From NCBI GenBank assembly GCA_003140935.1, contig PLLJ01000021.1:4555-68554 (forward strand): a stretch of DNA of 64,000 bases, given 5' to 3'. Positions 11,739-63,295 of this stretch are shown piece by piece; position 1 is the first letter of the stretch; each line of letters opens with the position of its first letter. The position numbers and the translations under genes are program-made. The DNA comes from Candidatus Omnitrophota bacterium (lineage in GTDB: Bacteria > Omnitrophota > Omnitrophia > Omnitrophales > Aquincolibacteriaceae). The notes beneath the pieces were generated by a model. The model had not been told where the DNA came from. It worked only from the letters and a program-made list of their open reading frames with translations, and did no database searches.

Positions 11739-12626
11739 ATGACGAAGACATCCACAAAATTAATCCGGGTCGGCCACAGTCCCGATGCTGACGATGCCTT
11801 CATGTTCTACGCGCTCGCCAAGAAGAAGATCCCGATGCGCGGGTTTGAGGTCGAGCATGTCATCGAAGACATCGAAAGCCTGAATCAGCGGGCACTTCGC
11901 GGGGAACTTGAGGTGACGGCAGTTTCCTGTCACGCGTACGCCTATTTGATGGACCGTTACGCCGTGATGCGTTCCGGTGCGAGTGTTGGTGACCAGTATG
12001 GGCCGATACTGGTTCGTAGGGCACTAGGGACTAGCCCCTCAAGACTCGTTTTAAAGAACAAACGGATTGCCATCCCTGGTGAATTAACGACTGCTTATTT
12101 AGCATTACGACTTTATTCAAAAGCCACAACAAGTCCCGAGTCCCAAGTCCCGAGTTCCGATTTCCAACCGGTCTTTGTGCCTTTCGACCGGGTGTTCAAT
12201 GCGGTCAAAAGCGGTGAAACTGATTACGGACTCGTGATCCATGAAGGCCAGATCACATTTGCGGAGCACAGTCTTGAAAAAGTTCTGGACCTTGGTGCCT
12301 GGTGGCATGAGAAAACGAAGCAGCCGCTTCCACTCGGGGTCGATATTATCCGGCGCGATCTCGGCCAGGACGTCATGAGGTCCTTCTCGGGACTTTTCAA
12401 GGAAAGCATCGAATATGCCTTGTCTCACCGGCAGGAAGCTTTAGAATACGCGCTCCAGTTCGGCCGCGGGATCTCGGGAGCCTTGAATGATCGTTTCGTT
12501 GCGATGTATGTGAACGATCGCACGGTGGATATCGGCAAAGACGGAGAAGCGGGGTTTCGCAGGTTGCTGGATGAAGCTTATCAAGCCGGAATCATACCGA
12601 AAAAAGTGAATTTGGAATTCATATAA
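11739..12626 (+). CDS. MqnA/MqnD-family menaquinone biosynthesis protein (futalosine pathway; most like 1,4-dihydroxy-6-naphthoate synthase MqnD)
   Basis: 295 aa. N-terminal GHSPDADDAFMFYAL motif and overall periplasmic-binding-protein-like layout are typical of the VitK2_biosynth (MqnA/MqnD) family. Confidence 0.6.
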   Translation: MTKTSTKLIRVGHSPDADDAFMFYALAKKKIPMRGFEVEHVIEDIESLNQRALRGELEVTAVSCHAYAYLMDRYAVMRSGASVGDQYGPILVRRALGTSPSRLVLKNKRIAIPGELTTAYLALRLYSKATTSPESQVPSSDFQPVFVPFDRVFNAVKSGETDYGLVIHEGQITFAEHSLEKVLDLGAWWHEKTKQPLPLGVDIIRRDLGQDVMRSFSGLFKESIEYALSHRQEALEYALQFGRGISGALNDRFVAMYVNDRTVDIGKDGEAGFRRLLDEAYQAGIIPKKVNLEFI

Positions 12627-46371: not shown

Positions 46372-47847
46372 ATGACGATCGACAGGGTGCTTTGGATGCC
46401 CCTTATTTTTGCGTTTCTTTGTTTGATCCCTTGTCCCAAGAGGATGACGCGCCTGACGTTTATGACCGGCGCCGTTCTTTCCGCGATCGGAGCATGGCTC
46501 TTTGTTTTTGGGACATCCTGGTCGCCCCGCGTGTTTGCTTTTAACGGAAATCTTATGATGGATTCGCTGTCCGCGGTCTTTGTGCTTCTGATCACGAGCG
46601 TCGGAGTGCTTTCCGCCGTCTATGCGGGGGGATATCTCTTCAAGGAAGGGGATTCGAGCATTTCTCCTTTAAGGCTTCGCCGGTATGCTTTCTTTTTCCA
46701 TCTTTTCCTTTTTACCATGCTTTTGACCGTTTTTTCCAATAATCTTGGCATCATGTGGATCGCGATCGAGGGGACGACGCTAGCGTCGGCCTTCTTGGTC
46801 AACGTGGATGATAAAAAAAGTTCGATCGAAGCCGCATGGAAATATCTGATCCTTTGCAGCGTTGGGATCGCGCTTGCGCTTTTCGGGATCATCCTGGTCT
46901 ATTATTCGGCGATCGCTCAAGCGGTGGTAGGAGAAAGCGGTTTTTTACTGAATTGGACCTTCCTTTTGAGCAAGGCCAAACAGTTGGATCCGCAAGTTCT
47001 CCGGCTTGCCTTTATCTTCATTCTTGTGGGCTATGGCACGAAGGCAGGCCTCGCGCCGTTCCATTCCTGGCTTCCGGACGCGCACAGCCAGGCTCCGGCC
47101 CCCGTGAGCGCGCTTCTTTCCGGCGTACTTTTAAGCTGTGCGACTTTGGGGATCCTGAGGTTCCACATCCTGACCACGGCCGCGACCGGCTCCGCATTCT
47201 CAGGCACACTTCTCATTTTATTTGGGGTGCTTTCTGTAGCCGTTGCGACGCCCTTTATCCTGGAGCAAAAAGATTATAAACGTCTTCTAGCCTATTCCAG
47301 TGTCGAGCATATGGGGCTTGCGGCTGTGGGACTGGGTTTTGGCGGCGTACTCGGGATCTACGCAGCGATTCTTCATATCGTGAACCATGCATTCACCAAA
47401 TCCCTGCTTTTTTTCAGTTCAGGGCATCTGCTCCATCTTTTTCAGACCAAGGAGATCGGTAAAGTCAAAGGGATCTTCCGGAGGAATCCGTTTTTAGGCG
47501 TCGTTTTCTTTTTAGGCGCTCTGGCTATTGCCGGAATGCCGCCATTCAGCATTTTTGTCAGCGAATTTCTTATTTTGACCGCAGGATTCCTGGCCGGAAA
47601 ATTCCTTCCGTGCGTCATTTTGCTTGTTTTACTAACACTTATCTTTGTCGGTTTTCTGAGGCATGCAAACCGGATGACTTTTGGCGTTCCGGAAGGGCCG
47701 CCCCCGATCGAGGAAAAAAGTTTCTTGATGGACGGCGTTCTTGGCGTCGGCTTGATCGTGATCTTCGCGATGGGTTTTTATATCCCAGGCCCGTTCCAGC
47801 GACTGCTTTTGGAAGCAGGCCGCGTCGCTGGAGGAGTCATCGTATGA
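46372..47847 (+). CDS. HyfF/HyfD/NuoN-like antiporter-type membrane subunit
   Basis: 491 aa. GTKAGLAPFHSWLPDAHSQAPAPVSALLSG is the conserved NuoM/NuoN motif. Confidence 0.75.
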   Translation: MTIDRVLWMPLIFAFLCLIPCPKRMTRLTFMTGAVLSAIGAWLFVFGTSWSPRVFAFNGNLMMDSLSAVFVLLITSVGVLSAVYAGGYLFKEGDSSISPLRLRRYAFFFHLFLFTMLLTVFSNNLGIMWIAIEGTTLASAFLVNVDDKKSSIEAAWKYLILCSVGIALALFGIILVYYSAIAQAVVGESGFLLNWTFLLSKAKQLDPQVLRLAFIFILVGYGTKAGLAPFHSWLPDAHSQAPAPVSALLSGVLLSCATLGILRFHILTTAATGSAFSGTLLILFGVLSVAVATPFILEQKDYKRLLAYSSVEHMGLAAVGLGFGGVLGIYAAILHIVNHAFTKSLLFFSSGHLLHLFQTKEIGKVKGIFRRNPFLGVVFFLGALAIAGMPPFSIFVSEFLILTAGFLAGKFLPCVILLVLLTLIFVGFLRHANRMTFGVPEGPPPIEEKSFLMDGVLGVGLIVIFAMGFYIPGPFQRLLLEAGRVAGGVIV

Positions 47848-49421
47848 AGACGGTTTTTCAAGAGCTGAAAAAGAGACTCGGTGATGCGATCTTGGAGGTT
47901 TCTGAGGGGCCGGCGAAAGAATGGCATGTTCTTGCGCTAAAAGATTCGATTCTAAAGATCGCGGAATGCCTCATGGAAGTTTTCGGGATGCGGTTCCTTT
48001 TTCTTTCCGGTTCCGATACAAGAAAAGAAAACGGATCTTTTACTCTCCACTACATTTTTTCCTATGCTCAACAGGACCAGTTTTTAACCGTTCAAACGAA
48101 GGTTGAGGAAAAAGACCCTCGTTTCCCGTCTTTAGCCCATTTCTTGCCGAAGGCTAATTGGCATGAGAGGGAAGTCCAGGACCTTTTGGGACTGATTGCG
48201 GTGGGGCATCCGGACCCCAGGCGTCTTGTCCTTCACGAAGACTGGCCTCAGGGGCTTTTCCCGTTGAGAAAAGATTTTGGATCTCCCAAGAAGATCCCCA
48301 GGGCCGCGGGGGATTATGTTTTTGAGCGCGTCGAAGGAGAGGGGATTTTTGAGATCCCCGTGGGTCCCGTTCATGCGGGGATCATTGAGCCCGGGCATTT
48401 TCGTTTTTCATCGGCTGGGGAAAGCATCCTCAAACTCGAAATCCGTCATTTCTACACGCACAAAGGGACCGAAAAATCAGGCGAGGGGAAATCCCCCGAA
48501 CATCTTCTTTGTCTCGCCGAAAGGATCTCGGGAGATAACTCTTTAGCTCATGCGGTGGCTTGCGCTCAGGCGCTTGAGAACCTGGGACGGATAGAGGTTT
48601 CGCCTCGCGCTCAATTTCTCCGGGTTGTTTTTCTTGAAATGGAACGTCTTCATAATCACATGAGCGACATCGCGGGGATCGCTCTGGATATCGCGTTCAG
48701 TTTTGGCGCGAGCCAGCTGATGCGGATCAAGGAAACTCTTTTAAGGCTCAATGAGCGATTGGCCGGGACGCGTCTCTTGCGGGGTGTGGTCACTTTGGGG
48801 GGTGTCCGTCAAGACATCTCCGAGACTCAAAAGGAGTGGCTTATCCAAGAGATCAAAAAGATCAAAAATGATTTTGACCAGACGATCCAACTCCTTTGGC
48901 AGGTCGATTCCCTGATGGATCGGGTCGAAACAACCGGCACGATCAAGAAAGAAGTGGCGGAGGTTCTGGGCGGTGTCGGACCGGTAGCGAGGGCCTCCGG
49001 CATTGACCGCGATCTCCGGCGGGACCATCCTTACGCGGCGTATAAGGATCTCTTTTTCAGGGTTCCTGTTTTTATGGAGGGCGACGTCGAAAGCCGCATG
49101 AAAGTAAAGGCCCAGGAGGTCTATGAATCCTTCAAGCTGATCTACGACGCCCTTTATGCGATGCCGGCGGGCCCCTTGTGCGGCGCAGTCAAGCCGCTCA
49201 TGCCGTCTCAAAGCGCATTGGGCTATACGGAGTCCCCGCGAGGAGAATGCTTTCATTGGATCTCCACGGACGGTCAGGGAAAGATCTCCCGCTGGAAGAT
49301 CCAATCACCGTCGTTCAGCAATTGGCCGTTGATCGAATATGCCGTCCTGGAGAACATAGTTCCCGATTTCCCACTTATTAACAAAAGTATGAATTTATCT
49401 TATTCCGGGAACGATCGGTAA
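47844..49421 (+). CDS. Fused NuoC-NuoD-like (HycE/HyfG-type) large subunit LACKING the four [NiFe]-ligand cysteines
   Basis: Start MKTVFQ overlaps the upstream stop (ATGA), with GGAGGAG upstream. Where HycE has RxCGxCxxxH, this protein has ERISGDNSLAH. Where HycE has DPCxxCxxR, the C-terminus reads NLSYSGNDR. Overall NuoC (N-terminal) plus NuoD fold motifs (GPVHAGIIEPGHFRF, TESPRGE) are retained. Confidence 0.8.
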   Translation: MKTVFQELKKRLGDAILEVSEGPAKEWHVLALKDSILKIAECLMEVFGMRFLFLSGSDTRKENGSFTLHYIFSYAQQDQFLTVQTKVEEKDPRFPSLAHFLPKANWHEREVQDLLGLIAVGHPDPRRLVLHEDWPQGLFPLRKDFGSPKKIPRAAGDYVFERVEGEGIFEIPVGPVHAGIIEPGHFRFSSAGESILKLEIRHFYTHKGTEKSGEGKSPEHLLCLAERISGDNSLAHAVACAQALENLGRIEVSPRAQFLRVVFLEMERLHNHMSDIAGIALDIAFSFGASQLMRIKETLLRLNERLAGTRLLRGVVTLGGVRQDISETQKEWLIQEIKKIKNDFDQTIQLLWQVDSLMDRVETTGTIKKEVAEVLGGVGPVARASGIDRDLRRDHPYAAYKDLFFRVPVFMEGDVESRMKVKAQEVYESFKLIYDALYAMPAGPLCGAVKPLMPSQSALGYTESPRGECFHWISTDGQGKISRWKIQSPSFSNWPLIEYAVLENIVPDFPLINKSMNLSYSGNDR

Positions 49422-49441: not shown

Positions 49442-50350
49442 ATGTTTCGAATTCTTAAAAAAAACATAGAAACGGGAAAAGTCACCCTTCCTTACGCGTC
49501 GCTTACGGCGAAAGCCACGGAAGGTTTTCTCGGCGCACCTGAGGTCGATCCCGCAAAATGCACGGGATGCGGAAAATGCGTCATGGCCTGTCCGACCAAG
49601 GCATTGACGATAGCGGATCCTTCGTCCGAGGACAAGCGCTTTTTTCATCTTTCTTATGGAGACTGCATCTTTTGCGGTCTTTGCGGGCCTGTTTGCCCCC
49701 ATCAGGCGATCTCTTTTAAAGGAAAATTCGATCTTGCTGCGCGAACAAAAAAAGAATTATGCCGGGAATTATCTTTTTCTTTATCCGACTGCCGGAAGGA
49801 TGCCGCCTTTATGGCTCAAGGGGCTTTACCGGTAAAGGAGAAGGTGAGGGAAGTCCCCGGGTTTGAGCAAGGTGATTTTGCCGGCCGGATCTCGACGGAA
49901 GAAATAGGTTTGAGATTAAAAGACAAGATCAAACGCCTTTTCGGCCGGTCGCTTCATATCCGCGAGGTTGACGCGGGTTCCTGTAATGCTTGTGAAGTGG
50001 AGATCGTGAATCTTTCGAACCCGGTTTATGATGCGGAGCGGTTCGGCGTTCATTTCGTTGCTTCGCCAAGGCACGCGGATATGCTTCTTGTGACAGGTCC
50101 GGTGACGCGGCAGATGGAGCTGGCACTCGTGAAGACCTACGAAGCAGTCCCTTCTCCCAAGCTCGTTGTGGTTTGTGGAAGTTGTGCGGTCAGTGGCGGG
50201 ATCTTCGAAGGAAATTATGCGGTGGTGGGGGGAGTGGACCGTTCCATCCCCGTGGATGTTTATATCCCCGGATGCCCTCCGCGGCCGGAAGCCATTCTCC
50301 ACGGAATTTTTCTCGCTTTAGATAAGATACCCGCAGTTAAAGAAGATTAG
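49442..50350 (+). CDS. Fusion of HycF/NuoI-like 2x[4Fe-4S] ferredoxin (N-terminal) with HycG/NuoB-like small subunit (C-terminal)
   Basis: Ferredoxin cluster motifs CTGCGKCVMACP and CIFCGLCGPVCP, then GSCNACEVE ... CGSCAVSGG ... GCPPRPE (the four ligands of the proximal [4Fe-4S]). Confidence 0.8.
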   Translation: MFRILKKNIETGKVTLPYASLTAKATEGFLGAPEVDPAKCTGCGKCVMACPTKALTIADPSSEDKRFFHLSYGDCIFCGLCGPVCPHQAISFKGKFDLAARTKKELCRELSFSLSDCRKDAAFMAQGALPVKEKVREVPGFEQGDFAGRISTEEIGLRLKDKIKRLFGRSLHIREVDAGSCNACEVEIVNLSNPVYDAERFGVHFVASPRHADMLLVTGPVTRQMELALVKTYEAVPSPKLVVVCGSCAVSGGIFEGNYAVVGGVDRSIPVDVYIPGCPPRPEAILHGIFLALDKIPAVKED

Positions 50351-53149: not shown

Positions 53150-53225
53150 TCCCCTGTAGCTCAGCTGGTAGAGCATGCGGCTGTTAACCGCAGTGTCCCT
53201 GGTTCGATCCCAGGCGGGGGAGCCA
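53150..53225 (+). tRNA. tRNA-Asn (anticodon GTT)
   Basis: Cloverleaf readable by eye: acceptor TCCCCTG/CGGGGGA, D-arm GCTC-AGCTGGTA-GAGC, anticodon arm TGCGG-CTGTTAA-CCGCA (GTT), T-arm CCTGG-TTCGATC-CCAGG, discriminator G plus CCA. Confidence 0.85.
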
Positions 53226-54803
53226 TTCCTTAACTTCCGGCGCACCAGCGCCGGAAGGGTTAGTCGTAGGTGGAAATTGCCCTTTTTGAGCTTCGTGCTC
53301 GAAGAGGGCAATTTCTATTTCTGAAGGTGTCCACGTTACCCGTTCCACAAACAAAGGCAGCAATTCCTTCATCTCCGCAGGATCAGCCGCTTCGTAGATC
53401 TGGCTGAATTTTGTCAGGGATTCATACATGATCCGGGCATTCATGGTCTGTTGCTGGATCTGCCCGATCTCAAAGTCAATATTCTGGATATCTTTCCCGA
53501 TCTGGTCTTTCTGGTCCTCAAGCTCACGAAGCTCTTCCGTGATCGATCTATTGATCTTGAGATCCGAATGGGAGGAGATGTTGTGCAGGATGTTCTTGAT
53601 CTTGCCTTTGATCCCGGTGAGCTTGATCTCCTGATGTTTCCTGTCTTTCTTTAATCCGACAAGACTGGATCCGGTATCCTTATTAGCTTCGTCTACTATC
53701 TTCTGAACCCTCTGTTTGTCGGTGCTCATCTTTTTGATCTCGCTTAATACAGCATTTTCCAGTTGGATCGCAGGCGCATACTTCATCTTGCAGGCAGATT
53801 TCCCGCTATTGGCATTGCGCGTACACTGATAGTAGTAGCAAAGTCCGTTTCTTCCGGTGCAGTACTTGGTAGACATGTAGTTTCCGCACCAGCCGCACTT
53901 AAGAAGCCCCTGGAGGAGGAACACATGCTTGACCTTCCGCTTGGGGTTGGTCCTTTTGGGAGCCTGTAGCTGGATCTTCCGGTTCACGTCGTGCCACAGC
54001 TCTTGGGTGACGATCGGAGGGTGCTGGCCGTTGTAAACTTTTTCGAGTTGCTTGATCTCCCCTAGATAAAGAGGATTGCTCAGGATATGCAGGACATTCT
54101 GGTTATAAAATGAGGAACCGCCTTTTTTAGAGTTCTTCCTTTTGGAGACGTATTCTTTTGTGCGATAACCATGCTCGTTGAGGAACTCCACGACCTTAAG
54201 GACGGAGCCCTTCTCCAGATATTTGTTAAAGATCAGGTTGACGAACTTCGCTTCCTGTTTATTTACGACAAGTTTTTTGTCGACAAGGTCATAGCCCAGC
54301 ACGTGTCCGCCATTCCAGAGCCCCTGCTGAGCCCGCCAAAGAAGCTTGTCCTTCGTTCGCTTGGAGGTCTGCTCTCGCTCCAGCTCAGCCCAGACAAGTG
54401 TCATCTTAAGCATTGCCTGCCCCATGGGAGTGGAGGTGTCGAAACCTTCCTCAAGCGAGATGAAATCGGCGTTGTGCCTTTTGAAGGTATCGCTCAGCTT
54501 GTAGAAATCAATGAGAGAGCGGGTGATGCGATCGATCTTGGTGCAGAGGACCGTGTTGATCCTGCCGTCTTTCACATCAGAGAGAAGTTCTTGCAGAGCG
54601 GGTCTGTCAGTATTCTTCCCGGACTTGCCTTCTTCACGGTAGACGCGGACCAGCTTCCATTTTGCGGAATCGTCGCTTCCCGGAACTTCACGGAATTTGA
54701 CGTACTGCTTGAGCCTGTCCGTTTGTGTATCAAGGGATCCGTCGCGTAATTCCGCCTGGCGCTCCGTAGAGACTCTGACATATAAACCGCACAGCTTGGC
54801 CAT
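53184..54803 (-). CDS. Large serine recombinase (resolvase/invertase N-terminal domain plus recombinase and Zn-ribbon/coiled-coil C-terminal regions); probable island integrase
   Basis: N-terminal LCGLYVRVSTERQ (catalytic Ser in the resolvase motif), 539 aa. The 3' end of the gene overlaps the last ~40 nt of tRNA-Asn. Confidence 0.85.
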   Translation of the reverse strand: MAKLCGLYVRVSTERQAELRDGSLDTQTDRLKQYVKFREVPGSDDSAKWKLVRVYREEGKSGKNTDRPALQELLSDVKDGRINTVLCTKIDRITRSLIDFYKLSDTFKRHNADFISLEEGFDTSTPMGQAMLKMTLVWAELEREQTSKRTKDKLLWRAQQGLWNGGHVLGYDLVDKKLVVNKQEAKFVNLIFNKYLEKGSVLKVVEFLNEHGYRTKEYVSKRKNSKKGGSSFYNQNVLHILSNPLYLGEIKQLEKVYNGQHPPIVTQELWHDVNRKIQLQAPKRTNPKRKVKHVFLLQGLLKCGWCGNYMSTKYCTGRNGLCYYYQCTRNANSGKSACKMKYAPAIQLENAVLSEIKKMSTDKQRVQKIVDEANKDTGSSLVGLKKDRKHQEIKLTGIKGKIKNILHNISSHSDLKINRSITEELRELEDQKDQIGKDIQNIDFEIGQIQQQTMNARIMYESLTKFSQIYEAADPAEMKELLPLFVERVTWTPSEIEIALFEHEAQKGQFPPTTNPSGAGAPEVKEWLPRLGSNQGHCG

Positions 54804-55036
54804 TTTTCCTCCGGGGTTGAATAATGGATCTCGATGCGCTATACTTAGCTAAGCAACAGTTATTATAAAGCATCGATAAGGAGAAATCAATCAAATGAGG
54901 AAGTTCACGTTTTGCCCCGCAATCTGCTACACTACAGCTATGATTTTATTCATGTTTGACTATCCTGTATGGACATGTTAGATTATATTTAAACCAAACA
55001 TCGAATTAAGCATATTAAAAACGTAGGATGACAACT

Positions 55037-55813
55037 ATGGATAGTCAAAAAGCAAGTAAGATAAACCAACTCATGAAAGCATGGCCGAAAGGGACTGTAG
55101 CCGTTTATAGCTGGCTGGCCTCCCAGGGGGTTTACCGCCAATTGGCCGGCAGTTATATCAAGGGATCCTGGATCGACCGGATCGGGCGCGGAGCTTTCAA
55201 GCGGGCGGGTGAAAAAGCGGACTGGACCGGCGCGCTCTATGCCATGCAGACACAACTGAAACTCTCGGTGCACGCGGCCGGAAAAACGGCGCTTGGGTTA
55301 CAAGGGTATGCGCACTATGTGCCCATGGGCGCCGGTCAGACGGTCGTTCTTTTCGGGAGTCCCACTGAGAAACTTCCGGAGTGGTTCCGGCGTTATGACT
55401 GGAAAATGAAACCGAGATACACCGCGACAGGATTCCTGGACGTCAAAAAGAGCACGGGCCTTGCCGATCACGCGCTGGGTGATTATTCGATAAAGATCTC
55501 TTCACCCGAGCGGGCGCTACTCGAGGTCTGCTACGATGTGCCTGACGAAGAATCCTATGAGGAAGCCGGTCTCTTGATGGAAGGCCTGACGACATTGCGT
55601 TCCGAGCTGGTCCGGGAGCTTCTAAAAGAGTGCCGCTCCGTCAAGGCAAAGCGCCTTTTCATGCATCTGGCTGAAAAACAGGGTCATGCCTGGGTGAAGA
55701 AGCTCGATCTCAAGAGGGTCGACTTCGGCAGTGGTAAGCGCATGATCGGCAAGCACGGAACCTATGACGCGAAATACAAGATCGTGGTGCCTGTGGCAAA
55801 AGAGGGAACATGA
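55037..55813 (+). CDS. AbiEi family antitoxin-like protein (type IV TA / abortive infection)
   Basis: The N-terminal region resembles the AbiEi_4 winged-helix domain. Immediately upstream of, and overlapping (ATGA), an AbiEii-type nucleotidyltransferase. The ATG at 55028 is an alternative start. Confidence 0.65.
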   Translation: MDSQKASKINQLMKAWPKGTVAVYSWLASQGVYRQLAGSYIKGSWIDRIGRGAFKRAGEKADWTGALYAMQTQLKLSVHAAGKTALGLQGYAHYVPMGAGQTVVLFGSPTEKLPEWFRRYDWKMKPRYTATGFLDVKKSTGLADHALGDYSIKISSPERALLEVCYDVPDEESYEEAGLLMEGLTTLRSELVRELLKECRSVKAKRLFMHLAEKQGHAWVKKLDLKRVDFGSGKRMIGKHGTYDAKYKIVVPVAKEGT

Positions 55814-56730
55814 AGAACAGCCTCTATTACAAACAAGCCGATCTTCTGATCCGCATCCTTCCGCATGTCGCGGAAGAACCCGATTTTGCCCTGCACGGCG
55901 GCACAGCCATTAATTTTTTCGTTCGCGGTCTCCCAAGACTGTCCGTGGATATCGATCTTACCTACCTTCCCGTGGAATCCCGGGAGGATACACTCCGTCA
56001 TATCGGGGAGAAACTCCGGATCATCGCGCAAAAGATCAGAAAGACCATCTCCGGAGTCAGGGTCGAAGAGAAGATCGACAAAACAAGCGGTGCCGTTACC
56101 AAGCTTTTTGCGAACCAGCAGGGAGCCCTTGTGAAGATCGAACCCAATCTGATCATCCGGGGAGCCGTTTCTGCCTGCGAGGAAAGGGAACTTTCAAAAG
56201 AAGCGAGAGACTTCTTCGAGAAATCCGTGAGCGTAAAGATGCTTTCTTTCCAGGACCTTTACGGCAGCAAGATATGCGCGGCATTGGACCGGCAGCATTC
56301 CCGGGATTTTTTCGATGTGAAGATACTCCTGGAGAACGAGGGGATCACCGACGCGGTCCGGAAGTCTTTTCTGGTCTATCTGATCAGCCATAACCGGCCC
56401 ATGTATGAAGTCCTGGCGCCTCGTCTGAAAGACCTCCGGCCTGTTTTTGAGAAAGAATTCTTGGGGATGACCCGGATCGCCGTGACCTGCGAAGAGCTCG
56501 AACGCGTCCGGAAAGAACTGATCGCGAAGGTCCGGAGCATGCTCACCCCGGATGAACGCGAATTTTTAATGTCCTTCAAGGAAAGAACCCCGAAATGGCA
56601 GCTTCTTGGGGTGGAGGGCGCCGAGCGGTTGCCCGCCGTACGCTGGAAGCTGGCCAATCTCGAAAAAATCGAGCGCGGAAAACATAAGGTCACCGTGGCG
56701 CGGCTAAAAAAAGCTTTAGAACTTTCCTGA
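55810..56730 (+). CDS. AbiEii/AbiGii family nucleotidyltransferase toxin (DUF1814)
   Basis: ALHGGTAINFF...RLSVDIDLTY is the nucleotidyltransferase GS...DxD-type motif of AbiEii. 306 aa. Confidence 0.75.
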   Translation: MKNSLYYKQADLLIRILPHVAEEPDFALHGGTAINFFVRGLPRLSVDIDLTYLPVESREDTLRHIGEKLRIIAQKIRKTISGVRVEEKIDKTSGAVTKLFANQQGALVKIEPNLIIRGAVSACEERELSKEARDFFEKSVSVKMLSFQDLYGSKICAALDRQHSRDFFDVKILLENEGITDAVRKSFLVYLISHNRPMYEVLAPRLKDLRPVFEKEFLGMTRIAVTCEELERVRKELIAKVRSMLTPDEREFLMSFKERTPKWQLLGVEGAERLPAVRWKLANLEKIERGKHKVTVARLKKALELS

Positions 56731-56900
56731 AATATCAACGGCGCAATCGGCGATCTTCCCTTCAAAAGTGGTCCTTTTTTCTATCCGTTCGCGATTAGAG
56801 AAATTTCTTAAAACTCTCCTCAAAGGGGTTAGAATACGCGCGTAGCGGCAGTGTGATAAGTAGCGGCCAACATGGAGACAATTAAAATAGGGAAGAGTGT

Positions 56901-57887
56901 ATGCAAGAACTAAAAAATAAACTAAATGAGATAGCTCAGCAGCTTAAAAAAGGAGTTTCACCTGCAAGAATGAGTGCGCGTGACATCCTGAAATTGCTTA
57001 ATTCTTCTCGACGGGGGAGCAATGTCAATTCTTTGGTAAGAAGCGCTTTGGAAAAAGCCGGTCTTCAAACTCAGCCTGATTTTGAATGGGCATATATTGA
57101 TGGTGCCATTAAATTCGTTGCAATTGGATCTGACGAGGATCGACAGGCTATAGCTACAACTTACCGAATTGACGGGCTGGGGTCGGCGCATCGCAAACCA
57201 GTTTCGATTAAGCCAGATAGTTCGCTTAATGAGGCGACCACTATAATGATGGCTAATAATTTTTCCCAATTACCTGTCATGACTACTGAACGCGAAGTAA
57301 AGGGTGCTATCAGTTGGAAATCAATTGGGTGTCGGTTGTCATTAGGTAAAAAGTGTACGGTAGTGCGAGAATGCATGGATTCCGCTAAAATAATAGGAAT
57401 GGAATCCTCCCTTTTCGAGGCAATAAAAATAATAGCAGAACATGATTATGTGTTAGTTCAATCGCAAGAGAAAATTATATGTGGCATAGTTACGGCAAGT
57501 GATCTAAGCCAACAATTTAGTGATTTGGCCGAACCTTTCGTGTTGATAGGCGAATGCGAGAATTTCATACGCCGTCTTATTCATGGAAAGTTCTGCGTGG
57601 AGGAGCTAGATGGAGCAAAGAATCCCAATGAGCTGAGTCGCGTAGTGGAGGGGGTAGCGGATTTGACATTTGGAGAATATGTGCGATTGCTTGAAGATGA
57701 AAAACGTTGGGACAAATTGAAGCTCTCTGTAGATCGGTGCGAATTTATCAAATGGCTGAACAGGGTTCGAAACATTAGGAATGATGTAATGCATTTCGAT
57801 CCGCAGGGCGCCGACCCTGTAGCTATGCAAGCATTAAGAGAGTTCGTGCATTTCTTACAGGAGTTACGTCGTCTTGTTGTGCTGTAA
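56901..57887 (+). CDS. CBS-pair domain protein with C-terminal HEPN-like (Rx4-6H) region
   Basis: Two CBS motifs (KPDSSLNEATTIMMANNFSQLPVM..., ...IIGMESSLFEAIKIIAEHDYVLVQSQEKIICGIVTASDL). C-terminal NRVRNIRNDVMHFDP contains an R-x4-H HEPN-type motif. Confidence 0.5.
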   Translation: MQELKNKLNEIAQQLKKGVSPARMSARDILKLLNSSRRGSNVNSLVRSALEKAGLQTQPDFEWAYIDGAIKFVAIGSDEDRQAIATTYRIDGLGSAHRKPVSIKPDSSLNEATTIMMANNFSQLPVMTTEREVKGAISWKSIGCRLSLGKKCTVVRECMDSAKIIGMESSLFEAIKIIAEHDYVLVQSQEKIICGIVTASDLSQQFSDLAEPFVLIGECENFIRRLIHGKFCVEELDGAKNPNELSRVVEGVADLTFGEYVRLLEDEKRWDKLKLSVDRCEFIKWLNRVRNIRNDVMHFDPQGADPVAMQALREFVHFLQELRRLVVL

Positions 57888-57980
57888 ATAAGGGGATGCT
57901 AAGTGCTTGCCCGCCGCCGATTTTTGGCAGGGGGGGGCACCGTCCGGGTTACGTGAAATTAAAATAAAGGCAAATATGTT

Positions 57981-59417
57981 ATGAAAAAATATGAGAAGCT
58001 CGATCAGTTTTTCGAACGGGTAAAAAATTTAGGTTTTTGGCAAAGAATCTTCAGTTGGCGGCTCGTGCAAAGTTTGAGCTACGAGGCTTTTGAGGAGTAC
58101 AAAAATCTAATCCATTTGGTAGTGAGTAGTGAGGAACAGCTAGCTACTTCTTCCAATAAGATCGACTTGCTAAATAACGACAATTCCCATATCAAATCCG
58201 AGTCCGTGAAACTGCAAAGCTCACTGGATATTTCGAATACAAAACTTACTTCTGTAGAGACAGCACTTTCCGCCCATAAAGCCGCTTTAGCTTCCAGAGA
58301 AGAGACTATAAAACAGTCAGATAAAAAAATAATCGAACAGCAAGCAGAATTAAAATCATTGAAGGAAAAACACACATCCGTAGAAACCATGCTTTCCAGC
58401 GCTGAGGCTACTTTGGCCTCAAGAGAGGAAAATATAAAACAGTCCGAGAAAAAAGCAGCCGAGCAACAAGCCGAATTAAAATCCTCAAAAGAAAATGCGA
58501 GATCTCTACAAGAAGAGCTCGCTGTTCTCAAGGAAGAAAACGCAATTTTTAAAAGTACAGAAAATGATAGAAATCAAAGTTACGAAACCAAGATCGCAAC
58601 GCTTGGCGCAATCACATCGCAAGTTCAAAAAGAGCGCGAAGTGGAGAAACAGAAAAATCTGGAAAAAGAAATTCAGCGCCTTACTGCAATGAAAGAAACA
58701 TGGGCAAGACATCAGGCGAGTGTTCAAGAAGCCATTAAAATGATATGTCAGAAGCATACAATCGAGTACATAGACCAAGTTCCTTTTAAAGGGAAGCCCG
58801 ATAATACCATTCAAATAAGTGACGAATACATTATTTTTGATGCGAAAAGCCCTTCCTCCGACGATCTAAAAAATTTTCCAATCTATATTAAAACTCAAAC
58901 AGAATCAGTAAAAAAATACATTAAAGAAGCGAATGTGCGTAAAGATATATTTCTTGTGATCCCTTCTAATGCAGTTGACGTCATTGATAACTTTAGCTTC
59001 AACATGGCTGACTATAATGTGTACGTTGTAACGATAGATGTACTAGAGCCCTTAATCCTTGCTCTTAGAAAAATCGAAGACTATGAATTTGTTGAACAAT
59101 TAACCCCGGAAGATCGAGAAAATATTTGCAGAATAATCGGAAAATTCGCACATATTACTAAACGAAAAATACAAGTTGATTTTTTCTTCACAAAAGAATT
59201 GATGGGTGTTCTTAAGAAATGTGAAGCAAATTTGCCTTCAGACATTATGGGAAAAGTGGTGGAGTATGAAAAATCTGAAAAAATAAATCCTCCTCGCGAA
59301 GCACGGTCAAAGCAAATTCTAACAAAAGAGTTGGAAGTAGAAAGCGAAACCATTCAATCTAGTTTTAAAGGTCTTCCACTCAACGAGAACGATGAGACTG
59401 TCCCAAGCCACCCTTAA
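57981..59417 (+). CDS. RmuC-like coiled-coil protein (DNA recombination protein RmuC family)
   Basis: A long N-terminal coiled coil with a ~42-aa tandem repeat. The C-terminal region has the RmuC-like motif KPDNTIQISDEYIIFDAKS. Confidence 0.55.
   Translation: MKKYEKLDQFFERVKNLGFWQRIFSWRLVQSLSYEAFEEYKNLIHLVVSSEEQLATSSNKIDLLNNDNSHIKSESVKLQSSLDISNTKLTSVETALSAHKAALASREETIKQSDKKIIEQQAELKSLKEKHTSVETMLSSAEATLASREENIKQSEKKAAEQQAELKSSKENARSLQEELAVLKEENAIFKSTENDRNQSYETKIATLGAITSQVQKEREVEKQKNLEKEIQRLTAMKETWARHQASVQEAIKMICQKHTIEYIDQVPFKGKPDNTIQISDEYIIFDAKSPSSDDLKNFPIYIKTQTESVKKYIKEANVRKDIFLVIPSNAVDVIDNFSFNMADYNVYVVTIDVLEPLILALRKIEDYEFVEQLTPEDRENICRIIGKFAHITKRKIQVDFFFTKELMGVLKKCEANLPSDIMGKVVEYEKSEKINPPREARSKQILTKELEVESETIQSSFKGLPLNENDETVPSHP
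58245..58500 (+). repeat. Two tandem ~126-bp imperfect direct repeats inside the RmuC-like gene (coding 42-aa coiled-coil units)
   Basis: ...TSVETALSAHKAALASREETIKQSDKKIIEQQAELKSLKEK / ...TSVETMLSSAEATLASREENIKQSEKKAAEQQAELKSSKEN, with a matching DNA-level repeat. Confidence 0.7.
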
Positions 59418-59597
59418 ACCACACACAGATGACAGAAACGGTTCTGGCGGGGACAGTTTGGTCGTGGATATGTCCCGCTGAGAACCGATCCAATTTGCAG
59501 GCATGTGCGGAGATTTGGAAGGATTGGCTGGTATGGCTTTTACCGCAAATAAAAATATTAAAATTACCAAATTCTAATCAGGCTTCAAAGGAATAAA

Positions 59598-59813
59598 ATG
59601 CGCCGTGATCCCGTTAGTTCGTCCGACATTGAATCAATCGGTTACGATGAAGGGACTCAAACTCTAGAAATTGAATTTAAAAGAGGGAGTGCTTATCAAT
59701 ATTTTGCTGTTCCGCGAGAGGTGTATGAAGCAATGATGGCTAGTTCATCATGCGGAAAATTTTTTTATTCAAACATCAAAGACAATTATTCAAGTTCAAA
59801 GGTTTCTAGATGA
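59598..59813 (+). CDS. KTSC domain protein
   Basis: IESIGYDEGTQTLEIEFKRGSAYQYFAVPREVYEAMMASSSCGKFFYSNIKDNY matches the KTSC domain consensus. The stop overlaps the start of the OLD-family gene (ATGA). Confidence 0.7.
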   Translation: MRRDPVSSSDIESIGYDEGTQTLEIEFKRGSAYQYFAVPREVYEAMMASSSCGKFFYSNIKDNYSSSKVSR

Positions 59814-61561
59814 AAATAATATCTTTTGCCGTCGATAATTTCCGCGGAATATCCGGGGGGTTAGAACGAAATATCATTTACTTTGATAATTCCAACACAT
59901 TATTAATCTTTGGCCAAAACAATACCGGCAAGTCAGCATTCCTGCATGCCTACGAGTATTTCTTCTATAATACCCATCCCTCGTTAGAAGATTTTTATCT
60001 GCAAGATCCCAATAATAAGATAAGTTTTGAATTGGAAGTCGAATTATCTGATGCAGACAAGGGCATACTTGAGCAAAAGAGTAAGAAAGCAAGCTACATG
60101 TTTCAAAATTATTTATCGAAAGATGGAAGATTAAAGATGCAGAAAATATGGGGTTCGGAAGACGTCAAAACGAAATCTAAAACTTATAAGGAAACCAATA
60201 GAACTTTTAGCCCCAAAACCTCTGATTGGGATGACAAATATTATGGTGGGATAGGGCTACATGAGGTTTTTCAAGAAAGCTTGCCCAAACCAATTCATAT
60301 AAAGGCTATGCCCACCGAGGAAGAGACTGAAAAAATCGTGAATCAAATTTTAGCGATTAGGGCCGAAGAGTTTTTAAAAGATGCCGCGAATCAGAAATAC
60401 AAGGATGCGATAGAGGCCATTAAAGAATTGAAAGAAAAGATGTATGACCCAGAAAGAATTCAACAATACAAGACTCACGTTAACGAGCAATTTCAAAAGC
60501 TATTTTCGGATACACAAATTGAATTAGATCCAAAAGAGAAAAAAAATAATTTGACCATGAGTATTGTAGGCAGAGACTATGGAGTCAAATTTTATAGACT
60601 TAACAGCGACAAAGGTATTAACGAAGCCATTCCAAGTTCATATCATAAAATAGGACATGGAGCAATTCGAACGGCAATATTTACTTTATTTCTCATGAGG
60701 GATATTGCTGAAGGATATGAGCGCAAAATGGGGCGGAAGAATTATTTAGTTCTTTTTGAGGAGCCGGAGCTTTTTTTACACCCAAAACTAATAAAAATAC
60801 TTCGAAGTTTAATCTATCAAATAAGTCAAGATGACCTGCCTTTTCAGATTCTATGCGCTTCTCACTCTCCACAGATGATAGATATTACCAAGTCAAAGTC
60901 ATCGCTGATTCGTATGACCAAGACAGACGGGAAGACCAGATTGTTTCAAATTGACGAAACGATATTAATGGATAAGGCTAAGATGGAAGTGAAGCACGAG
61001 CTTTATGAAGCTTTGCGGTTTAATCCGTACATTTGCGAATCATTTTATGCTGACGAAATAATATTAGTTGAAGGAGATTCCGAAGCGGTAATTTTGCGTG
61101 CATTTTTGCAAACAGCTAAAACTAGCAAGGATATTTTTGTACTGAACTGCGGCACTGTAAATAATATTCCATTTTTTCAGAAAATCTTTTCAAAATTTAA
61201 TATAAAATATCATGTGTTTTGCGATACAGATGGTCGTTTTAATGGAAAATTCGACCAGAATAAACAACCAATTTTTGAAAAATTTATACAGGGAAAAATA
61301 TATGAACAAATTAATGAAGATGTCAAAAAGACTGGCTACCGAGTAGGAATTTTAAGAGTGCATGATAAAAATTTTGAAGAAGCTCATCGGTTAATTGGCT
61401 CGAATTTGAAATATCCTTTTTCTGATGATGAGATTAAACAAGATGGTAAGCCATTTTGTGCCAATAGATATTGGGATGATGTATTGAAACCTAATCTGGG
61501 GCGTTCTGAGATTGATAATGTCCCGATAATTAAGTATTTAAAAGAAATGTTGGCTCATTGA
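59810..61561 (+). CDS. OLD family ATP-dependent endonuclease (ABC-type ATPase + TOPRIM)
   Basis: N-terminal FAVDNFRGISG...LLIFGQNNTGKS (Walker A), ...LFEEPELFLHP (Walker B/D-loop region). C-terminal TOPRIM IILVEGDSEAVILRAF with a downstream VFCDTDG (DxD). 583 aa. Confidence 0.8.
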   Translation: MKIISFAVDNFRGISGGLERNIIYFDNSNTLLIFGQNNTGKSAFLHAYEYFFYNTHPSLEDFYLQDPNNKISFELEVELSDADKGILEQKSKKASYMFQNYLSKDGRLKMQKIWGSEDVKTKSKTYKETNRTFSPKTSDWDDKYYGGIGLHEVFQESLPKPIHIKAMPTEEETEKIVNQILAIRAEEFLKDAANQKYKDAIEAIKELKEKMYDPERIQQYKTHVNEQFQKLFSDTQIELDPKEKKNNLTMSIVGRDYGVKFYRLNSDKGINEAIPSSYHKIGHGAIRTAIFTLFLMRDIAEGYERKMGRKNYLVLFEEPELFLHPKLIKILRSLIYQISQDDLPFQILCASHSPQMIDITKSKSSLIRMTKTDGKTRLFQIDETILMDKAKMEVKHELYEALRFNPYICESFYADEIILVEGDSEAVILRAFLQTAKTSKDIFVLNCGTVNNIPFFQKIFSKFNIKYHVFCDTDGRFNGKFDQNKQPIFEKFIQGKIYEQINEDVKKTGYRVGILRVHDKNFEEAHRLIGSNLKYPFSDDEIKQDGKPFCANRYWDDVLKPNLGRSEIDNVPIIKYLKEMLAH

Positions 61562-61579
61562 TCGCGCCTGTTTCATTGT

Positions 61580-62326
61580 TTGGTCAACTATTGTATGGGC
61601 ATTCTTAGTTATAAGATTGAACGATTAGAAAAAGTAATAGCGTGGGGTCGCTATCTTCATTGGTGTGATCTTCATCGTAAACGGTTTCAAAAATGGATAG
61701 AGATCCCTCATGATGTTTCGGATGCCATAGATGGTTGGCATTTTGTCGCTCTTGCCTCGCAGTGGTATGCGAGTCTTTGGGTGGTGATAGAAGGCTGGGC
61801 TGAGGCCAAATTAAAAGATCAAGCAATTGATGAGCTTTTGGAAAAAACAAAGAACAATAATTCTCTCTTAAAAAGGTATCGTAATGGGATTTATCATTTT
61901 CAACCGTCTTTATTAGAACCACGGCTTGTAGATTTTTTAAAAGAATCAGAAAAAAATGTTATGTGGATTCATGCTATGCATTTTGAATTTCTGAGGTTTT
62001 TCTGGAATTATGTGCATAGCATCCCAGGAAATAAAAATAAGCAGGAGTTCCATGAGCAAGTCATTGCAATACTTGGATGGATGCCCACGGATATTCCTGA
62101 TGCTTATCAGTGGGATGTTGAGCAATTATGTAATGAGGCAAACACATTAGTTTACTCTTCAGATGATGCGTCTTCTACGGATTCAAAGGAGCTTCTTTCT
62201 GCCGCATCTGATGCCTGCGTACAAGTCGAGAAAGGAGCTGAGCGATATAGAGAGTGGATTCAAGATTTAATAGACGCAATTAAAACCAATAAGACGGTTA
62301 ATCATATCAGCAACATTAGACCATGA
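61580..62326 (+). CDS. Hypothetical protein (248 aa), candidate partner of the OLD-family nuclease
   Basis: Begins 19 nt after the OLD gene stop on the same strand. No recognisable motif. Trp/His-rich helical protein. Confidence 0.5.
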   Translation: MVNYCMGILSYKIERLEKVIAWGRYLHWCDLHRKRFQKWIEIPHDVSDAIDGWHFVALASQWYASLWVVIEGWAEAKLKDQAIDELLEKTKNNNSLLKRYRNGIYHFQPSLLEPRLVDFLKESEKNVMWIHAMHFEFLRFFWNYVHSIPGNKNKQEFHEQVIAILGWMPTDIPDAYQWDVEQLCNEANTLVYSSDDASSTDSKELLSAASDACVQVEKGAERYREWIQDLIDAIKTNKTVNHISNIRP

Positions 62327-62442
62327 GACTATCAGAAAACGAAAAAAGAGATGCGGTGAAGTTGCTTCAAGAAGGCAAACCCCTGCCTGAGAAGTACCGT
62401 TTTCTTTTGTTTCAGGATGACCGGGAAGGTGAGCTTGGATAA
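62323..62442 (+). CDS. Possible 39-aa small ORF translationally coupled (ATGA) to the preceding gene
   Basis: ATG at 62323 overlaps the TGA of the 248-aa gene. Encodes MRLSENEKRDAVKLLQEGKPLPEKYRFLLFQDDREGELG. Not in the supplied track because it is under 60 aa. Confidence 0.25.
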   Translation: MRLSENEKRDAVKLLQEGKPLPEKYRFLLFQDDREGELG

Positions 62443-62611
62443 CCGGACGGCGTCCAATGAATGGGGAGGGGTAAGTCCGTTGAATGTACCAAACCCCAAT
62501 GGTTTGGTGCGGCTTTGGCGGGAGCCCGATGCTTCTGTTCGATCCGTGTGTCAGAAATAGCCATCACTTTTGCACGCAGTATCTTTGTGATAGTTTAAGA
62601 GCTGGAACGTC

Positions 62612-63295
62612 ATGGATAAAAAAAACCTTAGCGATTTCATCAAACATATTATATTCCTAAGTTCGGAGCTTGGGATAGTTTTAACCAAAACGCCTCTTAT
62701 AAAACTTCTCTATCTAATTGATGTTGAGTACTATCGTGCTACCGGAGAAAAATTAACTAACATCGATTGGATTTTTTATAAATATGGTCCCTATGCTTTT
62801 GAGTTAGAAGGAATTTTAACTGGCATGGGTCTCTCTGAAGAAATAGAAAGCACGACTTTTTCTTCTCCCCAAGGGAAAGGAGTTGCTTTCAGATCATCTC
62901 ATGGCGTTAATTTTCCGCTCAAAGATCCCGTCGCTCGCGGAATTGCTCAAGATATAGTTCGGAATTGGACAGATAAAGAGTTGAATGAATTGCTTAACTA
63001 TGTTTATTTTTACACTGAACCCATGAAATATGCAAAGTGTCGAGGAGAGAAGTTGGATTTTTCAAAAATTAATAGGGAACGAGAAAAAATATATGAAATA
63101 AAATTGAATCAAAATAAATTGGATGATTTAAACGCGAAATTGCGTGCTTTAGGTAATGCGCCAAAAATCAAAGAAAAGATGAAGGCGTTCATTAACTATG
63201 GCGTAAGAAACACATACTATTGGCCAGAGGATGATATTAATCTAAGCGGTAACGTTCTCATTGATCCTTCATGCGGTGAGGACAATGATGAGTAA
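62612..63295 (+). CDS. Panacea-domain (DUF4065, SocA-like) putative antitoxin
   Basis: KLLYLIDVEYYRATGEKLTNIDWIFYKYGPY fits the Panacea/DUF4065 pattern (KLxKLLY...G...F..W..GPV). 227 aa. Confidence 0.6.
   Translation: MDKKNLSDFIKHIIFLSSELGIVLTKTPLIKLLYLIDVEYYRATGEKLTNIDWIFYKYGPYAFELEGILTGMGLSEEIESTTFSSPQGKGVAFRSSHGVNFPLKDPVARGIAQDIVRNWTDKELNELLNYVYFYTEPMKYAKCRGEKLDFSKINREREKIYEIKLNQNKLDDLNAKLRALGNAPKIKEKMKAFINYGVRNTYYWPEDDINLSGNVLIDPSCGEDNDE

Follow-up and report, generated by a model that had tools for sequence, protein, structure and literature searches.

EhrS, a fused ferredoxin-type and small-subunit protein encoded at the end of a six-gene ehr operon in an Omnitrophota genome

The ehr operon and its last gene

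The window analyzed here, a stretch of 64,000 nucleotides from a Candidatus Omnitrophota bacterium (assembly GCA_003140935.1, contig PLLJ01000021.1, positions 4,555 to 68,554 of the forward strand), carries a six-gene operon which encodes a membrane-bound complex of the energy-converting hydrogenase-related (Ehr) kind (Table 1). Three of its five gene junctions overlap by 1-4 nt (TGATG, ATGA, ATGA): the stop codon of ehrA and the start codon of ehrB share 1 nt, and ATGA overlaps join ehrB to ehrC and ehrD to ehrL. At the other two junctions the genes lie 4 and 20 nt apart. The product of the last gene, EhrS, unites in a single chain a ferredoxin-like protein with two [4Fe-4S] clusters and the small subunit that accompanies it in hydrogenases and in complex I, and is the subject of this report.

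The ehrS open reading frame (ORF) runs uninterrupted for 302 codons from an ATG, the only stop being at its end, and a purine-rich AAAAAGGGG lies 5′ of the gene, ending 6 bases before the start codon. A preliminary description of this DNA, made from its letters, had claimed a single polypeptide of 302 residues with two CxxCxxCxxxCP motifs and the full set of proximal-cluster ligands; the ORF and the positions of the motifs are as described. The window protein possesses all 12 Cys ligands for three [4Fe-4S] clusters. In an alignment of 88 EhrS sequences the eight ferredoxin Cys and C184 are invariant, while C181, C248, and C278 are kept in at least 90% of the sequences. Residues K103, L106, G156, F167, and R169 are conserved and flank, or continue through, the junction between the two domains.

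Table 1. Coordinates of the ehr operon, of the parts of EhrS, and of the downstream island in the window, together with two homologous EhrS genes used for comparison
Feature	Position	Strand	Remarks
EhrA, HyfB/NuoL-like antiporter-type membrane subunit, 675 aa	42734..44761	+	First operon gene; Pfam Proton_antipo_M, E 3e-56
EhrB, HyfC/NuoH-like membrane subunit, 316 aa	44761..45711	+	Pfam NADHdh, E 5e-41
EhrC, HyfE-like membrane subunit, 219 aa	45708..46367	+	Weak Oxidored_q2 (NuoK), E 1e-4, under the Pfam cut-off
EhrD, HyfF/NuoN-like antiporter-type membrane subunit, 491 aa	46372..47847	+	Pfam Proton_antipo_M, E 1e-55; Proton_antipo_N
EhrL, fused NuoC-NuoD large subunit, 525 aa from the ATG at 47844	47844..49421	+	Pfam Complex1_30kDa, Complex1_49kDa, NiFeSe_Hases
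EhrS, fused 2x[4Fe-4S] ferredoxin domain and small subunit, 302 aa	49442..50350	+	Last gene of the operon
EhrS N-terminal HycF/HyfH/NuoI-like domain, aa 1-119	49442..49798	+	NCBIfam PRK12387/PRK08222, PDB 7z0s_F, pLDDT
First CxxCxxCxxxCP motif, CTGCGKCVMACP, aa 40-51	49559..49594	+	C40/C43/C46/C50
Second CxxCxxCxxxCP motif, CIFCGLCGPVCP, aa 75-86	49664..49699	+	C75/C78/C81/C85
Linker, aa ~120-157	49799..49912	+	Poorly conserved, length varies; pLDDT <50 at aa 136-150
EhrS C-terminal HycG/MbhJ/NuoB-like domain, aa ~158-297	49913..50332	+	PDB, Foldseek, Pfam Oxidored_q6
GSCNAC, aa 179-184	49976..49993	+	Proximal (N2-like) cluster ligands 1 and 2, C181/C184
CGSCAVSGG, aa 245-253	50174..50200	+	Proximal-cluster ligand 3, C248
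GCPP, aa 277-280	50270..50281	+	Proximal-cluster ligand 4, C278
Two-cluster EhrS examples	L004:8956-9843, L016:8989-9912		Compared with window 49559-49699
Large serine recombinase	53184-54803	-	
AbiEi and AbiEii	55028-56730		The island also holds a CBS-domain protein
OLD-family AAA_15 and TOPRIM nuclease	59810-61561		
SocA/Panacea antitoxin-domain protein	62612-63295		

Matches in Pfam, NCBIfam, and PDB agree on an in-frame union of a HycF/NuoI-type 2x[4Fe-4S] protein with a HycG/NuoB-type subunit, as had been proposed. Pfam recognizes two Fer4 stretches (aa 33-91) followed by Oxidored_q6 (aa 181-289, E 2e-32). At the N-terminus, positions 1-119/120 of the NCBIfam models for HycF and HyfH (PRK12387/PRK08222) align to aa 1-119/120 of EhrS, and residues 1-119 of HycF (7z0s_F) match aa 1-119 with an E-value of 3e-22. 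The C-terminal domain finds its best PDB match in MbhJ (6cfw_J, E 2e-44); residues 25-161 of HycG (7z0s_G) match aa 158-294 (E 1e-41), and the NCBIfam NuoB model aligns to aa 182-297. The score of EhrS lies above the cut-off for PRK06411, a NuoB subfamily (149.1; cut-off 116), and below it for TIGR01957 nuoB_fam (133.8; cut-off 142.7) and for TIGR01971 NuoI (59.2; cut-off 113). The protein has the four proximal Cys of a group 4 hydrogenase-type small subunit as well as the 2x[4Fe-4S] part; it lacks the C-terminal third of HycF (residues 120-180) and both the N- and the C-terminal extensions of HycG, the latter of approximately 90 residues.

That these parts are separate elsewhere is borne out by the solved structures of formate hydrogenlyase (FHL), membrane-bound hydrogenase (MBH), and complex I, in which they are separate chains, and a PDB search found no solved chain spanning both halves of EhrS. 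HycF and HycG of Escherichia coli FHL (PDB 7Z0S/7Z0T), like HyfH and HyfI of Hyf, align colinearly with EhrS, share its Fe-S ligands, and have their genes side by side in the same order; HycF and HycG are, however, two polypeptides with a [NiFe] partner, whereas EhrS is one chain and its partner, EhrL, is without a [NiFe] site. Pyrococcus furiosus MBH (MbhJ and MbhN, PDB 6CFW) and MBS (PDB 6U8Y) are relatives that lack an NADH module and use ferredoxin to drive ion translocation; they differ in their separate chains and in Mrp-type membrane arms with more subunits, MBH being moreover a true hydrogenase. NuoI (N6a/N6b) and NuoB (N2) of complex I show the fold and the ligand pattern of the three-cluster terminal wire found in EhrS, but nuoI and nuoB are separate, non-adjacent genes, and the operons contain 11-14 genes as against six here. 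Fusions of neighboring peripheral-arm subunits are likewise known in NuoC-NuoD (E. coli, Aquifex) and NuoB-C-D (NCBIfam PRK13292); that in EhrS is I-B, unlike C-D or B-C-D, and a NuoC-NuoD fusion is also present in the window operon.

EhrS was modeled with AlphaFold2 using the 88-sequence alignment. The model has a mean predicted local distance difference test (pLDDT) value of 79 and a predicted template modeling (pTM) score of 0.78; both domains lie at a pLDDT of about 85-95 (about 90 for aa 31-130), and aa 136-150 of the linker, at less than 50, are disordered. The pTM value suggests that in the model the two domains have a defined mutual orientation. Foldseek matched the C-terminal domain to HycG, NDUFS7, and MbhJ (for MbhJ, TM 0.84 and root mean square deviation 2.2 Å). 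Between positions 119 and 160 the linker measures 41 residues in the window protein and in locus L001, and 13 to about 26 residues in most other lineages; from linkers of only 13 residues, as found in many homologues, we deduce that the termini of the two domains must be close together when assembled, an indirect point in favor of a HycF-on-HycG type of packing. A fixed 1:1 stoichiometry and a fixed geometry of the electron wire would be a plausible rationale for such a fusion, for which assembly or stability would be an equally good one.

Occurrence of the fusion

A search over 5.8 billion protein clusters yielded 8000 matches, of which the best 120 were examined. All but one partial sequence (119 of 120) represent the same fusion, with 276-315 residues and Fer4 plus PF01058 domains, and these share 51-94% identity with EhrS across 89% or more of its length. 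When one genome of each species was scanned, at least 593 genomes matched; among the best 80 loci (L001-L080), which were examined, about 76 match EhrS residues 1 to approximately 296. Among the remaining loci the match begins at residue 28-29 in two and at 49-50 in three, and L077 has two separate genes in place of the fused one. The presence of the fusion in related genomes, which the preliminary description had put forward as a check, is thereby established. The fused loci belong to Omnitrophota, Ignavibacteria/Bacteroidota, Acidobacteriota, Verrucomicrobiota, Bacillota, Planctomycetota, Dormiibacterota, Limnocylindrales, and Methanocella; the Bacillota carriers include a cultured strain, Anaerobacterium chartisolvens DSM 27016 (L046). 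The six-gene order leading up to the fused gene is identical in essentially every one of the 80 loci that is long enough, EhrA being syntenic in all full loci and the position of EhrC being kept in homologous operons. A second HyfF-like or HyfB-like antiporter copy occurs in L020, L022, L023, L039, and L068 (Verrucomicrobiota/Limnocylindrales) and in L008, L033, and L077, and L071 contains two tandem Ehr clusters, each with a fused small subunit as its last gene.

The best 150 representatives at 50% identity were assessed with a phmmer domain test; a regular expression for the Cys motifs undercounts fusions, many of the motifs being degenerate. In 48 of the 150 the N-terminal domain is found upstream of the NuoB domain, and the other NuoB-domain matches among them are unfused and of NuoB/HycG size.

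The linker is poorly conserved and poorly modeled, and the Candidatus Methanoperedens locus L077 has two genes with their junction in the linker region, both of which would be in keeping with an assembly or sequencing error that had merged a hycF-like with a hycG-like gene. The other two forward frames, however, are closed by stops across the linker (49717, 49833, 49845, 49864, 49873, and 49905-49917), the identical EhrS protein is found on five contigs, the longest of 967 kb, and the conserved residues continue through the junction. Because the same colinear fusion occurs in independent clusters and genomes, a frameshift or missed stop is excluded in practice, and its probability is, in our estimate, negligible.

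The ehr cluster of Geobacter sulfurreducens, GSU0739-45, was reportedly described by Coppi in 2005. This cluster (EhrA-D, EhrL, EhrS) is the founding example of the family. The novelty of the fusion, which the preliminary description had implied, does not stand. In Supplementary Note 4 of Matheus Carnevali 2019 (PMC6349859), the NuoB gene of the Margulisbacteria Ehr also encodes a NuoI homologue and the NuoD gene also NuoC, the other subunits being HyfB, HyfF, NuoH, and HyfE; the operon so described is the same as that of the window. For Firmicutes, thermophiles, and Margulisbacteria, that note reports such fusions in Ehr with reference to Marreiros et al. 2013. The NuoI-NuoB fusion in Ehr is already published, and the window protein is one more instance of it. 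A literature search for a HycF-HycG fusion and for the group 4f small subunit returned nothing on this fusion. The Ehr complexes of Geobacter, of the Marreiros 2013 family, and of Margulisbacteria RA1A consist, like that of the window, of two antiporter-like subunits, a NuoH-like and a HyfE-like subunit, a Cys-less NuoC-NuoD, and a small subunit; the window differs in its Omnitrophota-like genome and in an unusually long linker (41 residues).

The exact EhrS sequence is already present in NCBI, JGI, ENA, and Logan. Its JGI name carries both COGs ([quoted passage not shown]), whereas relatives are named "NuoB" or "formate hydrogenlyase subunit 7" at NCBI. The label "NuoB" hides the ferredoxin half and invites misreading of the operon as that of complex I or of a hydrogenase. 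The practical value of recognizing the fusion lies in annotation; as a discovery it matters little.

Variants of the large subunit and of the ferredoxin clusters

Alignment of EhrL to HycE (7z0s_E) reveals that the four [NiFe] Cys are replaced by S, N, S, and G: RVCGICGFAH has become RISGDNSLAH, and DPCYSCTDR has become NLSYSGNDR. At the positions of Tyr87 and His38 of Thermus Nqo4, the ligands of the quinone head group in established complex I structures, EhrL has Gly and Ile. The resulting S-G-D / L-S-Y-S-G pocket is shared by all other loci with a readable EhrL, except L061.

Several features would suit an electron-transfer subunit of a true H2-evolving group 4 [NiFe] hydrogenase of the Hyf/FHL type: among solved structures the closest homologues are HycF, HycG, and MbhJ; the gene order is that of hyfB-C-E-F-G-H-I; and the four [NiFe] Cys persist in a close sister clade (L061, L081-L107), whose small subunit is fused in the same way. 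Against these stand the replacement of the L1 and L2 Cys in EhrL itself and the absence of hyp maturation genes among the ORFs scanned in the 64-kb window, only part of which were domain-scanned. A canonical complex I is likewise at odds with the locus, for EhrL is without the quinone Tyr and His of NuoD, and the operon, of six genes only, falls short of the complex I set (NuoA, J, K, and others). Both readings were rejected, that of a true hydrogenase as highly improbable. The locus does have the gene set of the group 4/complex I type, a Cys-less large subunit, and the NuoB-NuoI and NuoD-NuoC fusions that have been described for Ehr; because EhrL lacks all four [NiFe] ligands and the quinone Tyr and His, the complex is, as judged from sequence, an Ehr complex rather than a hydrogenase or a canonical quinone reductase. 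EhrS would act like the Fe-S arm of a hydrogenase, yet outside any hydrogenase. We are confident that EhrS, the product of the terminal ehr gene, is a natural and ancient in-frame fusion of hycF/hyfH with hycG/hyfI which would serve as the ferredoxin-type Fe-S arm of the Ehr complex.

The fusion had also been suggested as a marker of this Ehr subtype, a role for which it is too widespread: it is common to at least two Ehr types, occurs with a [NiFe]-type large subunit as well, and is missing in L077. Large subunits of one type, with the motifs ER[IV]SGD.../LSY[SA]GND, are found in the window, Bacteroidota, Bacillota, and archaea, and those of the other, with ES[IV]SGDS.../LSYSGTDR, in Acidobacteriota and Verrucomicrobiota; both types carry the fused small subunit. 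The Planctomycetota locus L061 (6888-9792) has a fused small subunit in the same six-gene operon, together with a large subunit which retains all four [NiFe] Cys (ERICGVCAASH ... LCYSCTD). In the clade to which it belongs the fusion is present in all 21 metagenome loci with a visible small subunit (L081-L107), the [NiFe] Cys again being kept. The L061-type clade is of groundwater origin and Planctomycetota-type, and in L061 a gene of the PD-(D/E)XK nuclease family (8543-8947) is situated between the genes for the large subunit and the fused protein.

Unfused states are also found. In L077 (9001-9824), a metagenome-assembled genome of Candidatus Methanoperedens, the Ehr operon is Cys-less, and the ferredoxin part (112 residues) and the small subunit are separate genes with an ATGA stop/start overlap; this arrangement either is naturally split or results from a frameshift of 1 nt in a fused gene. 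The Cys-less variants L114 and L118 have a short, unfused small subunit. The overlapping pair in L077 illustrates a one-step route between the split and the fused states. The most likely origin of the fusion is that two adjacent genes lost the overlap of stop and start between them; in the simplest history, read from the sequences, this would have happened in a hyfH-hyfI-type pair while the [NiFe] site was still present, and would occasionally have been reversed.

A census of ligands in 80 fused EhrS proteins found all 12 Cys in 26, and the window protein belongs to this full grade. In the other 54, C50, C75, C78, and C81 remain, and the set C40, C43, C46, and C85 is gone as a whole, replaced by W-A-A ... 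S/T/D/gap. In the standard ligation of 2x[4Fe-4S] ferredoxins, loss of C40, C43, C46, and C85 removes exactly one cluster, presumably the distal one equivalent to N6a if the assignments for Thermus Nqo9 are followed. The two-cluster pattern (W-A-A-C / C-C-C-x) is found mainly in Acidobacteriota and Verrucomicrobiota, and three-cluster proteins in the window, Omnitrophota, Bacteroidota/Ignavibacteria, Bacillota, Methanocella, and the sister clade bearing [NiFe] ligands. The cluster grade correlates with the motif of the large subunit, ER-x-SGD accompanying three clusters and ES-x-SGD two.

These grades, together with the fused relatives of [NiFe] type, lead us to propose, tentatively and with somewhat more doubt than conviction, that the EhrS family falls into discrete three- and two-cluster grades and that the two domains were fused before the [NiFe] site was lost and before the wire was shortened. 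No description of EhrS cofactor grades was found in the literature. If they are real, the grades would form a natural series from which the function of Ehr might be worked out.

Among the 50%-identity representatives there are also fused relatives without any complete ferredoxin motif. Further loss of Fe-S ligands is seen in P0124 and P0121, the former being without the Cys of the N2/proximal cluster (AAGSENSCDW, GDEACSGG, GDPP). Loss of the P0124 type hints at Ehr-like complexes whose electron wire may be crippled or absent.

Proposed electron path and the remainder of the window

By homology to FHL, MBH, and complex I, EhrS would bind three [4Fe-4S] clusters and supply the peripheral arm with its entire electron wire. 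Electrons would pass from the distal to the second ferredoxin cluster, from there to the N2-like cluster, and on to a pocket formed with EhrL and EhrB, the S-G-D / S-Y-S-G residues of EhrL contributing with EhrB to the acceptor site. Because the operon encodes no donor module (no equivalent of HycB/FdhF or NuoEFG), the donor is most likely a soluble ferredoxin which would reduce the distal cluster directly, as in MBH, Ech, and cyanobacterial NDH-1. The two antiporter-like subunits presumably couple turnover to the translocation of ions. The likely benefit of the fusion would be the co-folding or assembly of the Fe-S arm, with no new chemistry.

Some points weigh against this picture. The donor, the acceptor, the direction of electron flow, and the pumping of ions are, for this family, all inferred. 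One ferredoxin cluster has been lost in many relatives, and a three-cluster wire is thus not essential to the family. Ferredoxin is, moreover, not the sole candidate donor, given the formate-dependent rise of the Geobacter Ehr and the formate dehydrogenase (FDH) partners proposed in Margulisbacteria. FDH is indeed the main alternative to ferredoxin: in such an FDH-Ehr complex the N-terminal domain would be the docking or entry point for the Fe-S subunit of FDH. Growth of G. sulfurreducens on formate raises the abundance of all Ehr subunits (PMC7894505), and PMC6349859 proposes an FDH-Ehr complex for Margulisbacteria and Saganbacteria. On the other side, no fdh or nuoEFG gene, whether fdhA or nuoE/F-like, was seen among the ORFs scanned in the 64-kb window, nor was one found in the 18.8-kb L061, the sole homologous locus in which the flanking genes were domain-scanned. 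For the window complex we consider an FDH donor quite unlikely.

As regards the acceptor, the NuoH-like subunit and the N2-like cluster would be in keeping with a minimal complex-I-like ferredoxin:quinone oxidoreductase delivering electrons to menaquinone, and the window itself contains, at 11739-12626 (+), a gene of the VitK2_biosynth family (E 1e-70), of the MqnA/MqnD type belonging to the futalosine route to menaquinone. The organism may, from this gene, make menaquinone, which would bear on the acceptor of Ehr. One mqn-type gene is, however, no proof of a quinone pool, and EhrL has Gly and Ile where Nqo4 has the quinone ligands Tyr87 and His38. A menaquinone-reducing complex is on balance unlikely, if not to be dismissed lightly.

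What this widely distributed six-gene complex oxidizes or reduces is not made more tractable by the finding of a fusion. Concrete starting points are the ligand census and the cultured carrier A. chartisolvens.

The ehr operon is flanked upstream by a gene for a response-regulator receiver protein and downstream by a convergent PNPOx-like gene. Near the start of the window (460-11694, +) is a giant ORF of 3744 aa with an N-terminal signal-like sequence. Pfam finds in it a methyltransferase domain (aa ~2960-3117) and no other match, apart from an aldose-epimerase-like one of 24.2 bits, under the cut-off of 27 and with no stretch significant alone. From 53184 to 63295, some 2.8 kb downstream of the ehr operon, the window contains the recombinase and the defense and toxin-antitoxin genes listed in Table 1, an island which is probably an integrated mobile element.

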